From contig CAIOZS010000103.1 in the NCBI GenBank assembly GCA_903862845.1, positions 6,187 to 70,186 on the forward strand: a stretch of DNA of 64,000 nucleotides. Reading direction: 5' to 3'. The notes beneath the pieces are model-generated. The model worked only from the letters and a program-made list of their open reading frames with translations. It was not told the DNA's origin and did no database searches. Positions 53,584 to 56,086 of the stretch are shown in pieces. The translations under genes were made by a program, and so were the position numbers. Source of the stretch: an uncultured Thermoleophilia bacterium. Lineage in GTDB: Bacteria; Actinomycetota; Thermoleophilia; UBA2241. Every line of letters begins with the position of its first letter. The stretch's first letter is position 1.

Positions 53584-54606
53584 GTGTCGCCGGTCGGACT
53601 GGGTCTGCGCGGCGCCGGCGACGATCTGGAGCTCAAGCCCATCCGCGAGCGCGGCGGTGCCCTCAACGACCTCCTCGAGAGGCTGCTCAACAAGGGCGTG
53701 GTCGTCGATCTCGACCTGGTGATCGGCGTGGCCGGCATCCCCCTCATCGGGGTGAGCCTGCGCGCCGCCGTGGCCGCCATCGAGACCATGATCGAGTACG
53801 GCTTCATGCAGGCCTGGGACGAAGACACGCGCCGCTACGCCGAGCGCGAGCTGCAGCGCAAGAAGCTTGACTACGCCCCCGGCGAGGTCGCCACCCTCGA
53901 GATGTTCGGCTCGCACTGGTACGCCGACCGCATCTATCGGGCGTGGCGTCCGGGCCGCCTGTATCTCACCGACCGCCGCCTCATCCTCTACCGCAAATCG
54001 CCGGCCGAGGTGCTCTTCGAGACCCCCCTGCAGAGCATCCGCGGCATGGCGGTCGCCGAGTCGGTGCACTTCAATGGCAGGGTCACGCCCCTGTTGCACC
54101 TGGCCCTCGAGTCGGAGGAGCAGGTGTCGATCTACGCCGAGGATCTGCCGGCTCTCGAAGCGGCGCTGCACGACCGGCTGCAGGAGCTGGGCGTGCATCT
54201 CACGGAGACGGTCAACACCTGCGAGCGCGACGCCGACGTCAGGGAGGCCTTCCCCGACCATCGCCTGCTGGCCGACGGCAGGATGTGGCGCGAGGCCCCC
54301 GGCGGCGTCGGCCAGGAAGCCGTGATGTGGCAGGCCGGCTGGCTGTACCTCACCAGCGAAGGGCTGGTGTGGTGGTCCGAGAGTGAGCGGCGGACGCTGG
54401 TGCGCATCCCTGTGGCCGACATCATCACTGTGGGCGTCGAGGAGCGCGACCTCGGTCCTCTGCTGGGCGCCACAGCGGTGCTCGGCGTGCGCTACCGCGA
54501 GCGCGGCCGCCAGAAGACGGTGCTATTCGCCGGCAAGGGTCCGGACGAGTGGCGCCGCGGCATCCGCCGGGTGGTCGTCGACTATGACGGCGGAGGCCTG
54601 CCGTGA
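53584..54606 (+). CDS. GvpA/J/M-family paralog with a long C-terminal extension containing two PH/GRAM-like segments
   Basis: GTG start. N-terminal LNDLLERLLNKGVVVDLDLVIGVAGIPLIGVSLRAAVAAIETM, then GRLYLTDRRLILYR and AGWLYLTSEGLVWW motifs. Confidence 0.65.
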   Translation: MSPVGLGLRGAGDDLELKPIRERGGALNDLLERLLNKGVVVDLDLVIGVAGIPLIGVSLRAAVAAIETMIEYGFMQAWDEDTRRYAERELQRKKLDYAPGEVATLEMFGSHWYADRIYRAWRPGRLYLTDRRLILYRKSPAEVLFETPLQSIRGMAVAESVHFNGRVTPLLHLALESEEQVSIYAEDLPALEAALHDRLQELGVHLTETVNTCERDADVREAFPDHRLLADGRMWREAPGGVGQEAVMWQAGWLYLTSEGLVWWSESERRTLVRIPVADIITVGVEERDLGPLLGATAVLGVRYRERGRQKTVLFAGKGPDEWRRGIRRVVVDYDGGGLP

Positions 54607-54926
54607 TCGACATCGACGAGGGCAACCTCAAACAGGGGCTGCTGGGGCTCGTTATCGCCCTCGTGGAGGTCATCGAGGACGCGCTGTCCACGCAGGCCTT
54701 CAGGCGCGTCGAGAGCGGGCATCTGACCGAGGCCGAGATGGAGCGCCTCGGCGAGGCGCTCTCCGACCTGCACGTGGCGCTCGCCCAGATCAAGGAGGAG
54801 CACGGCGTCACCGACGCCGTGCAGCAGGTCAGGGACGGCCTCGACGAGCTGGTCGACGAGGTGGTCGACCGCATGATCAACCCCGAGCGCTGGCGTGAGG
54901 AAGTAGCCCGCGCGGAAGCTGAGTGA
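54603..54926 (+). CDS. gvpK: Gas vesicle protein GvpK
   Basis: IDIDEGNLKQGLLGLVIALVEVIEDAL...ERLGEAL pattern of GvpK. Confidence 0.85.
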   Translation: MIDIDEGNLKQGLLGLVIALVEVIEDALSTQAFRRVESGHLTEAEMERLGEALSDLHVALAQIKEEHGVTDAVQQVRDGLDELVDEVVDRMINPERWREEVARAEAE

Positions 54927-56086
54927 TACGTGCGCGTACACCAGTGGGGCCGGGCAAGGGCGAGGACGACGCAGCTCTGCTGCGCAGTCAGGGGGGCTTC
55001 ATCCCCCAGTGGTCGTCGGCGTGGCGCCTCGGCGAGCTGTTCCTCTTTGCCGACAAGCTCGCCTTCGCGCAGCCGGGCAAGCCGCGCTTCGAGTTGTCGC
55101 TGGCCACGGTCACCGACGTCGCCATGGAGCGCCGCAAGTTCATCCTGCTGCACAAGGACGTGGTCAAGCTCACCTACGTCCTGCCGAACCAGAAGCGCTC
55201 GCGGCTGGCCTGGTTCATCACCGCGGACGCCGGCCGATGGTTCGACGAGATCATGACGCTGACCAAGGCCGGCCGGGCGGCTGCCGCGAAGGACGGTGCC
55301 CGGGCGCCGGACCGGGCGCGTGGCGCCGGCGCCTCCCGCCCGCCGGGTGGCGCCGGCGCTTCACGCCCGTCCCCGCAGCCGGGCGCCGGCGGTGAGCCCG
55401 TGATCGTGCGCGAGGAGCAGGTCGAGGAGCTGGCCGTCACGCTGAGCCCGGCCGGAGCCCGCATCCTTCGGCATCTCTGGGAGCGACGCCACGCTGATAT
55501 CAAGGAGCTCGCCCAGGTGGCCGACTCACGCTCGCACATGGAAGTGCTGACCTTGCTGCGCGAGGGCATCAACGGCGCCGCGGAGCGCCTGTTCGGCCAC
55601 CCGGTGCTGGTGTTCAAGGAGCGCGCCCTGGACCGCGTGAGCGGGCGCGCCGTTACCTTTCAGTGGTGGCTGGAGCGCGCCGACGAGACCGGCGAGGCCG
55701 AGTCCGAAGGTGACGTGGATGCCCGGTTCGACCTCGAGGCCGGGCCCGGGCGGGTGGCCGCGCCGGAGGCCGGCGCCTCGCAAGCAGAGGCCGGAGGGCC
55801 GGCGCCGCCGGCTCTCGACGCGGCCGAGCCGTTCGTCGAGATTCACGACGAAGGCGAGACCCTGGTGGTCGTCGTCATGGGGCAGGGGGTCGGCGCCGAG
55901 ACGGTCAGGGCGCCTCAGGTGCAGGACGGCGACACGCTCGTGGTGGCGCTGCAGACGGCTGCCGGACGGCGCGAGCTCCGCGTGCCTCTGCCGTGCGTCG
56001 TGCTGGACGCCCCGCTCACGGCGACAAACGCAAACGGGGTCGCGAGCCTCACGTTGGTCAAAGTAGTCCGAGAGGAAAGGCGATGA
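54923..56086 (+). CDS. Hypothetical protein: N-terminal PH/GRAM-like segment, Ala/Gly/Pro-rich linker, C-terminal beta-rich (Hsp20/CS-like?) region
   Basis: WRLGELFLFADKLAFAQPG..; C-terminal FVEIHDEGETLVVVVMGQGV...LVVALQTAAGRRELRVPLP. Confidence 0.45.
   Translation: MIRARTPVGPGKGEDDAALLRSQGGFIPQWSSAWRLGELFLFADKLAFAQPGKPRFELSLATVTDVAMERRKFILLHKDVVKLTYVLPNQKRSRLAWFITADAGRWFDEIMTLTKAGRAAAAKDGARAPDRARGAGASRPPGGAGASRPSPQPGAGGEPVIVREEQVEELAVTLSPAGARILRHLWERRHADIKELAQVADSRSHMEVLTLLREGINGAAERLFGHPVLVFKERALDRVSGRAVTFQWWLERADETGEAESEGDVDARFDLEAGPGRVAAPEAGASQAEAGGPAPPALDAAEPFVEIHDEGETLVVVVMGQGVGAETVRAPQVQDGDTLVVALQTAAGRRELRVPLPCVVLDAPLTATNANGVASLTLVKVVREERR

Follow-up and report, generated by a model that had tools for sequence, protein, structure and literature searches.

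PH-like domains predicted on a GvpM-type gas-vesicle protein and on an Hsp20-like protein of the same gene cluster

Results

A GvpM-type gene and a partner gene with PH-like domains

The DNA analyzed is a stretch of 64,000 nucleotides (the window) from an uncultured Thermoleophilia bacterium (assembly GCA_903862845.1, contig CAIOZS010000103.1, positions 6,187 to 70,186). The window has a G+C content of ~70% and contains a complete gas-vesicle (gvp) cluster on the + strand at ~41.2-56.9 kb. Two genes toward the 3' end of this cluster are our subject. The gene at 53584 codes for a protein that we term GvpM-PH-PH, in which a GvpA-family core is followed by two domains predicted to have a PH/GRAM-like fold. 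The gene at 54923 codes for a protein that we term PH-wH-ACD, in which a PH-like domain precedes a winged-helix-like (wH) domain and an Hsp20-type α-crystallin domain (ACD). The features of this region are as follows.

53584..54606, + strand: GvpM-PH-PH gene, 340 aa, GTG start (from the open reading frame (ORF), start context and homologues)
53635..53832, + strand: GvpM-type GvpA-family core, aa 18-83, with α1, hydrophobic β-hairpin and α2
53890..54186, + strand: PH/GRAM-like domain 1 (PH1), aa 103-201, signature WRPGRLYLTDRRL
54265..54585, + strand: PH/GLUE-like domain 2 (PH2), aa 228-334, signature WQAGWLYLTSEGL
54603..54926, + strand: gvpK (Pfam GvpK, 62.7 bits), with a 4-nt overlap with each flanking gene
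54923..56086, + strand: PH-wH-ACD gene, 387 aa (from the ORF; P0111 is 100% identical)
54980..55297, + strand: PH-like domain 3 (PH3), aa 20-125 of the 54923 protein, strongly basic across the family
55394..55687, + strand: wH middle domain, aa 158-255, conserved, unclassified
55823..56077, + strand: Hsp20 ACD, aa 301-385

The GTG start codon at 53584 sits 7 nt after a GGAGG motif, and the same 340-aa product was found by independent gene callers on at least 19 metagenome contigs. A longer ORF from an ATG at 53374 (410 aa) was rejected; it overlaps gvpJ in another frame, and the start used by homologues and by gene callers alike is the GTG at 53584.

The N-terminal core is of the GvpM type

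Pfam Gas_vesicle (PF00741) matched aa 26-64 of GvpM-PH-PH with 48.1 bits against a cut-off of 25, and it matched 34/34 aligned homologues. An earlier reading of the DNA made from its letters alone (the sequence-only reading) had proposed a GvpA/J/M-type N-terminus. That assignment is upheld and can be narrowed to GvpM-like, the NCBIfam scores being 76.9 bits for halo_gas_GvpM, 48.2 for GvpJ and 34.9 for GvpA. As the 76.9 bits fall below the 109-bit cut-off of halo_gas_GvpM, an "exception"-type model built for haloarchaea, we call the protein GvpM-type and not a strict member of the model. The GvpM of H. salinarum (from pNRC100) matched a hidden Markov model (HMM) of the family N-terminus with an E-value of 5e-27 over residues 6-71, a span that takes in the IPLIG turn, the α2 motif and the following WD motif, and GvpJ matched with an E-value of 7e-19.

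The landmarks of the core are an AGIPLIG turn in the β-hairpin and a conserved WDE motif after α2. The family profile matched the GvpA structures 8gbs and 7r1c, and the core aligned without gaps to the sequences of these structures and to the cluster's own GvpA over α1, β1, β2 and α2. At the level of sequence the hydrophobic hairpin is thus retained, a point that the sequence-only reading had named as a check. The gene is accompanied by gvpA, gvpN, gvpF/L, gvpG, gvpK and gvpO as judged by Pfam scans, and the window contains no separate short GvpM-like ORF. Judged by these comparisons, the 53584 gene is the cluster's predicted GvpM-type GvpA paralogue, with an intact α-β-β-α core.

Three homologous PH-like modules

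The structure of GvpM-PH-PH was predicted with AlphaFold2 (AF2) as a monomer, using a 34-sequence alignment. PH1 comprises seven strands and a helix at 188-201, and PH2 seven strands and a helix at 320-334, each at a predicted local distance difference test score (pLDDT) of ~90. Together with PH3, all three domains are predicted as seven-stranded antiparallel β-sandwiches capped by a C-terminal helix (pLDDT ~85-95). A conserved helix joins α2 of the core to the PH pair, which has a mass of ~28 kDa. The PH/GRAM-like folds that had been proposed are therefore predicted with confidence, and the region is not mere low complexity. The extension had been described as 280 aa long with two G(R/W)LYLT segments; both segments are present (GRLYLT at aa 124-129 and GWLYLT at aa 252-257), and the length is ~265 aa. 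The similar segment ascribed to the next-but-one gene was also found: with gvpK lying between, the 54923 protein contains WRLGELFLFADKLAF at aa 34-48.

Pfam recognizes these domains at the margin. GRAM matched PH1 weakly (19.9 bits against a cut-off of 23.6), and Vps36 GLUE matched PH2 barely above its cut-off (24.5 bits against 24.1). Across the family, GRAM was detected in 22/34 members and Vps36 GLUE in 28/34 (E ≤0.01). A search of PDB sequences with the family profile returned BBS5 with an E-value of 3.7e-5, together with Vps36 GLUE and the dynamin PH domain. The predicted domains are also significantly similar in structure to solved PH-fold domains. The top Foldseek matches of GvpM-PH-PH in the PDB were tandem-PH proteins, namely BBS5 (E 8e-9), the PH-PH unit of FARP1/2, centaurin α-1, archaeal CheF, the PH-PTB units of Dok7 and IRS-1, and the double-PH histone chaperones Spt16M and Rtt106.

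The modules also resemble one another. Comparison of family sub-alignments with hhalign gave 98.4% probability and an E-value of 6.5e-15 for PH1 with PH2, 95% and 3.5e-8 for PH2 with PH3, and 75% and 2.5e-5 for PH1 with PH3. On these profile comparisons the three PH modules are judged homologous, their resemblance being far beyond chance. An alignment of 64 modules yielded a single signature, W-[RK]-x-G-x-L-Y-L-T-x-x-[RK]-L, in which the W is invariant, and WRPG and RR residues are conserved on strands β2 and β3. Besides the GvpM-fused pair, PH modules were met on sHsp-type (small heat-shock) proteins, joined to zinc ribbons, and as free proteins of ~130 aa. The GvpM-fused modules have a mean net charge of 0 ± 3.2, and the partner and free modules one of +5 to +9, a split that fits distinct and possibly complementary roles for the two groups.

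The PH-wH-ACD protein

The PH-wH-ACD protein has 49 homologues, which have been named "HSP20 family chaperone" by the Joint Genome Institute (JGI). In the AF2 model, the PH-like domain (20-125) is followed by a low-complexity linker, the wH domain (158-255), a second linker and a β-sandwich (301-385). The wH domain consists of helices and then a β-hairpin, at pLDDT >90. Its database matches are weak only (HVO_A0114 and HTH_24); it has no sequence relative in the PDB and no significant match to any DNA-binding family. It is acidic on average (charge -2.8), which argues against DNA binding.

The C-terminal β-sandwich is predicted to be an ACD, which confirms the Hsp20-like fold that had been read from the sequence. 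H. salinarum GvpH matched the ACD HMM of PH-wH-ACD with an E-value of 1.4e-5, and Pfam HSP20 gave no match to the window protein at E ≤0.1. The chain ends in ...LVKVVREERR, a few residues past the predicted last strand of the ACD, and so lacks a C-terminal extension of the I-x-I kind. Since there is neither a Pfam HSP20 match nor an extension, we describe PH-wH-ACD as an ACD-containing protein and not as a canonical sHsp.

Distribution and linkage of the modules

The protein collection contains 110 relatives of GvpM-PH-PH. Where names have been assigned, they read "gas vesicle protein" or "hypothetical protein", and for many of the relatives matches to PF00741, PF02893 and PF11605 had already been computed. 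Relatives are found in 318 genomes of a species-representative genome set. The locus counts below refer to the best 80 loci of these 318 genomes (numbered with the prefix L), with modules scored by HMMs built for the purpose. These loci span more than 15 phyla. They come from Actinomycetota, Desulfobacterota, Chloroflexota, Bacillota, Atribacterota, Bacteroidales, Omnitrophota, Planctomycetota, Spirochaetota, Myxococcota, Verrucomicrobiota, Nitrospirota and others, and from one Methanocellales archaeon. The closest relatives, at 92, 86 and 79% identity, belong to one Actinomycetes metagenome-assembled genome (MAG) and two Thermoleophilia MAGs, and cultured carriers include Desulfosporosinus fructosivorans 63.6F and Anaerobacterium chartisolvens DSM 27016.

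GvpM-PH-PH was detected in 79/80 loci. Also encoded in these loci are the architectures PH-wH-ACD (31), PH-wH (11) and PH-PH-wH, the last with or without an ACD (5), as well as free PH proteins (17). Where at least 5 kb of sequence is available on both sides, a second PH-bearing ORF was present in 34/38 loci, usually within 0.3-4 kb, and a wH domain in 32/38.

In Bacillota (L022, L029, L035-L037 and L068) the modules of the partner occur on separate proteins: gvpJ is followed by a gene for a free wH protein of ~155 aa, and the ORF of a free PH protein (~130 aa) overlaps the gvpM-PH-PH start. Neither of these two proteins carries an ACD. An example of a free PH protein is at 9655-10038 of L037. 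On a contig of the Methanocellales MAG (L050), GvpM-PH-PH lies beside GvpJ with a zinc ribbon, GvpK, GvpF/L and Hsp20, which suggests either cluster transfer between domains or a binning error. Two metagenomic proteins, P0223 (435 aa) and P0260 (415 aa), are GvpK-GvpM-PH-PH fusions. Read as "Rosetta stone" proteins, they hint that GvpK and GvpM may act together.

An exhaustive search of 1.84 billion representative proteins with the PH-module profile recovered only 223 clusters at E ≤0.001. Among the best 150 of these, 149 were gas-vesicle-type architectures or PH-only proteins and fragments, and one was a spurious repetitive protein; the PH module is thus a small subfamily essentially private to gas-vesicle clusters. 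A word-indexed search with the PH alignment returned short proteins only, and most of the 15 inspected were fragments of the same family.

The surrounding gvp cluster

The remaining features of the cluster are given below.

41188..56922, + strand: whole gvp cluster (Pfam scans)
41188-41412, + strand: gvpA
41547-43220, + strand: 557-aa protein of 33-residue repeats, directly after gvpA
45271-45579 and 45576-46019, + strand: two adjacent small ORFs, 102 and 147 aa
46040..46633, + strand: second Hsp20/GvpH-like gene of the cluster (Pfam HSP20 and GvpH)
46649-47683, + strand: M48-like, 344 aa (weak M48-peptidase match, 21 bits, HExxH region)
49958-52096, 49106-49900 and 52111-53154, + strand: CDC48-type double AAA+ ATPase, two DnaJ-type CXXCXGXG zinc-finger proteins, and GvpF/L-J-domain fusion
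53187..53582, + strand: gvpJ-type gene with C-terminal zinc ribbon, directly upstream of gvpM-PH-PH

The 5' part of the cluster runs in the order gvpA, 33-aa-repeat protein, unknown, gvpN, two small paralogous unknowns, Hsp20/GvpH-like and M48-like. The middle part consists of gvpF/L, gvpG, gvpO, the two DnaJ-type zinc-finger genes, the CDC48-type double AAA+ gene and the gvpF/L fused to a J domain. The 3' part comprises gvpJ with its zinc ribbon, gvpM-PH-PH, gvpK, PH-wH-ACD and a third gvpF/L. Successive 4-nt overlaps link gvpM-PH-PH, gvpK, PH-wH-ACD and the last gvpF/L, and the TAG stop of gvpJ lies one base before the start of gvpM-PH-PH; these overlaps and the one-base gap indicate one translationally coupled operon. 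A promoter and terminator scan of the gvp cluster gave nothing above background.

The gene set recurs in L002, L008 and many further loci, the recurring members being GvpJ with a zinc ribbon, GvpK, three GvpF/L (one with a J domain), CDC48, DnaJ zinc fingers and Hsp20. The chaperone-like part of the set (CDC48, DnaJ zinc fingers and J-domain GvpF/L) is found in many related loci of other phyla. The gvpJ-type gene had halo_gas_GvpJ as its best NCBIfam match (100.7 bits), with Pfam Gas_vesicle and weak zinc-ribbon matches, and its ribbon reads CPQC..14..CPWCGW. In relatives (L015-L080) the zinc ribbon is often at the C terminus of GvpM-PH-PH or on a separate double-ribbon ORF, and in this it acts like a second mobile module of the clusters. 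H. salinarum GvpH matched the Hsp20 gene at 46040-46633 with an E-value of 4e-10.

Other genes of the cluster are recorded here as side observations. The 557-aa protein has a repeat period of 99 nt (3.8 copies) and a 252-nt higher-order period, and its tail consists of a Pro/Glu/Lys-rich linker and a C-terminal helix-hairpin-helix motif. GvpC proteins are likewise built of 33-residue repeats, so that the 557-aa protein, despite its unusual tail, may be an analogue of GvpC. The 102- and 147-aa ORFs are mutual paralogues that share an N terminus (MRP.GM...ATATG...) followed by a coiled-coil-like stretch; neither had a Pfam match, and the pair is kept in the closest loci, L002 and L008. The M48-like gene, between the Hsp20 gene and gvpF/L, is kept in L002, L008 and L023. 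Just upstream of gvpA, at 37878-40979 on the + strand, lie a large GAF/PAS-type histidine kinase gene and two response-regulator genes, one of OmpR type, which from their translations are possible regulators of the cluster.

Discussion

The proposal that PH/GRAM-like folds on a GvpA-family scaffold had not been described stands as far as the literature could be searched: full-text searches turned up no publication in which gas vesicles are connected with PH, GRAM, GLUE, pleckstrin or bPH domains, although many subscription papers lay outside these searches and the result is absence of evidence only. As far as we can tell, the architecture is catalogued, in the form of database proteins with weak Pfam matches, yet undescribed; the PH modules are additions to a GvpM paralogue and a gvp-associated sHsp, and the kind of system is known.

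In Halobacterium, GvpM is essential, scarce and prone to aggregation, and GvpJ too aggregates readily; GvpH and GvpF both attach to the last 25 aa of GvpM, and GvpH keeps GvpM monomeric and protects it from aggregation (PMC7688916). GvpJ, GvpM and GvpS are candidate nucleation factors, the formation of the nucleus is an open question of the field, and mature vesicles contain few or no detectable GvpM-type proteins (PMC9994262). We think it somewhat probable that the GvpM core described here resides in the vesicle nucleus and that the PH pair is an outward docking platform for chaperones, an arrangement that is at present a prediction. The GvpM-type protein would be a low-abundance component of nucleation or insertion sites, as proposed for GvpJ, GvpM and GvpS. 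Its core would integrate into the nascent shell while the C-terminal PH pair pointed into the cytoplasm. There the pair would be a platform for protein-protein docking. It would recruit the PH-tagged sHsp and the free PH proteins, or else be kept in solution by them, and these partners would in turn connect it with the other chaperone-like products of the cluster (GvpH-like Hsp20, J-domain GvpF/L, DnaJ zinc-finger proteins and CDC48 ATPase). The outcome would be to hard-wire the contact of the GvpM C terminus with GvpH and GvpF that is known from Halobacterium.

The Halobacterium proteins offer a precedent: the PH pair is attached exactly at the position of the GvpM tail to which GvpH and GvpF bind, and a GvpH-related ACD is present in the partner. 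We also count for the docking reading the architecture and predicted folds, the GvpM-type identity of the core, the linkage of the genes (the 79/80 and 34/38 loci, the 4-nt overlaps, the overlapping PH ORFs and the GvpK-GvpM fusions), the privacy of the PH subfamily to gas-vesicle clusters, and the charge difference between GvpM-fused and partner modules.

Several points weigh against this reading. Docking is something that we infer, and the predicted structures are of monomers. AF2 confidence is low for the GvpM core (pLDDT <50, residues 1-61), so that the model does not give the placement of the PH domains relative to the core. The outward direction of the C terminus is deduced from the GvpA shells 7r1c and 8gbs and is not stated in the cited papers. 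Partner PH modules as strongly basic as these would be equally suited to binding acidic lipids or nucleic acid. Finally, 4/38 well-flanked loci lack a detectable second PH gene.

A more specific form of the docking reading, which we put forward tentatively as a possibility, is a private PH "address code". Matched PH modules on GvpM, sHsp-like and free proteins would form a hetero-oligomeric hub at the site of nucleation or growth and would there recruit the sHsp, the J-domain GvpF/L, the DnaJ zinc fingers and CDC48.

Among the alternatives, the PH pair may act purely in cis as a steric cap or solubility tag that keeps the aggregation-prone GvpM core soluble, blocks rib polymerization and confines GvpM to the nucleus, tip or seam, with no dedicated partners. 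The ready aggregation of GvpM and GvpJ (PMC7688916), the entire hydrophobic hairpin of the core and the direct attachment of the pair to α2 through a conserved helix are all in keeping with such a cap. We nevertheless consider it unlikely, because it leaves unexplained the homologous PH modules on the sHsp protein and on free proteins of the same clusters, as well as the conservation of two modules in nearly all members.

The PH modules could instead bind anionic membrane lipids and so tether either the nascent vesicle or the machinery that assembles it to the cytoplasmic membrane. Lipid binding is common among eukaryotic PH, GRAM and GLUE domains, and the closest Pfam and structural relatives of the modules include the lipid binders Vps36 GLUE, BBS5, centaurin, Lam6 and MTMR2. 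The basic charge of the partner and free modules (+5 to +9) and the conserved WRPG and RR on β2/β3 point the same way. Yet gas vesicles are lipid-free protein shells formed in the cytoplasm, the GvpM-fused modules are net neutral on average, and the family spans phyla with very different lipids, one archaeon included. Many of the PH-fold matches, moreover, are to domains that bind proteins (pICln, CheF, TFIIH p62, PTB domains and the double-PH histone chaperones), and a lipid tether seems quite unlikely to us.

It is improbable that the PH pair organizes the surface of mature vesicles, either by GvpC-like stiffening or by clustering and spacing them like P. megaterium GvpU. The module would be displayed on the outer face of the shell, and clustering of the GvpU type by surface-bound proteins is known (bioRxiv 10.1101/2023.06.01.543273). 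However, the cluster already encodes a GvpC-like protein of 33-aa repeats, little or no GvpM-type protein is detected in mature vesicles (PMC9994262), and the GvpT and GvpU of this species (also B. megaterium) have, over their first 133 aa, no similarity to the PH modules. Hardly credible is a regulatory role in which PH-wH-ACD would bind DNA and link gvp transcription to assembly by sensing free GvpM-PH-PH through its PH module: the wH-like topology and the weak HTH_24 and HVO_A0114 matches speak for it, but the wH domain has an acidic average charge (-2.8), neither DNA-binding families nor solved structures match it significantly, and in Bacillota it is a separate small protein inside the structural operon.

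Identity of the family with previously named Gvp proteins was considered separately. P. megaterium GvpT (as a GvpA-PH-PH protein) and GvpU (as a free PH protein) were rejected; the first 133 aa of each, with sequences taken from the supplement of PMC11445434, gave no match to the PH, wH or ACD HMMs. The basic GvpI of H. salinarum was likewise rejected as a relative of the basic PH module, as it did not match the PH HMMs and the shared positive charge is an analogy only.

The roles of the minor GvpA paralogues GvpJ, GvpM and GvpS, and vesicle nucleation itself, are acknowledged open questions (PMC9994262). The GvpM variant described here is widespread in nature, occurring in 318 species genomes that include those of cultured anaerobes, and its two folded soluble adaptor domains, together with a chaperone-type partner bearing a related domain, provide concrete interaction surfaces. 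As a soluble epitope or a site for a tag, the PH pair could also help to locate GvpM on vesicles by cryo-electron tomography. The clusters define a chaperone-rich type, with CDC48, J-domain GvpF/L, DnaJ zinc fingers and two ACD proteins, that is relevant to the porting of gvp clusters into new hosts as acoustic reporter genes. They are also a clear instance of a prokaryotic organelle that has recruited PH-like domains. If the address code were true, it would amount to a prokaryotic PH-domain system for organelle building and would give a handle on vesicle nucleation.

Comparison with known systems

GvpM-PH-PH resembles the short GvpA paralogues H. salinarum GvpM and Priestia megaterium GvpS in its α-β-β-α core, its IPLIG turn, the TM-EYG α2 and the WD motif, and in its place in a gvp operon next to gvpJ, gvpK and gvpF/L. 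It differs from haloarchaeal GvpM, a protein of 84 aa with a short acidic tail that binds GvpH and GvpF, in that a helix and two PH-like domains (~260 aa) replace the tail and a zinc ribbon is added in many of its relatives.

With BBS5, Vps36 GLUE, FARP1/2, centaurin α-1 and archaeal CheF it shares two consecutive helix-capped seven-stranded PH-like sandwiches. The GRAM-type GxLYLT strand is also present in the gas-vesicle modules, and the sequence-profile matches are significant though weak. Identity to BBS5, Vps36, FARP, centaurin and CheF is 10-17%, the sequences yielded no assignable lipid- or ubiquitin-binding residues, and the setting is a bacterial gas organelle, not eukaryotic membrane traffic. 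The likeness to pICln, a PH-fold assembly chaperone of Sm proteins, is one of fold only (7% identity) and offers a mechanistic analogy, not homology or the same binding mode.

The C-terminal ACD of the 54923 protein is GvpH-related. In contrast to GvpH and Hsp20, however, a PH module and a wH domain replace the usual disordered N-terminal arm and the C-terminal extension is missing; a more typical GvpH-like Hsp20 (46040-46633) is present besides PH-wH-ACD.

Among prokaryotic PH-like folds, the families bPH_1 to bPH_6 (Xu et al. 2010, PMC2817789) are comparable, and weak bPH_3 matches occur in 5/34 members of the GvpM-PH-PH family. Those families have not been reported in gas-vesicle proteins, and the bPH matches are weaker than those to GRAM and GLUE.

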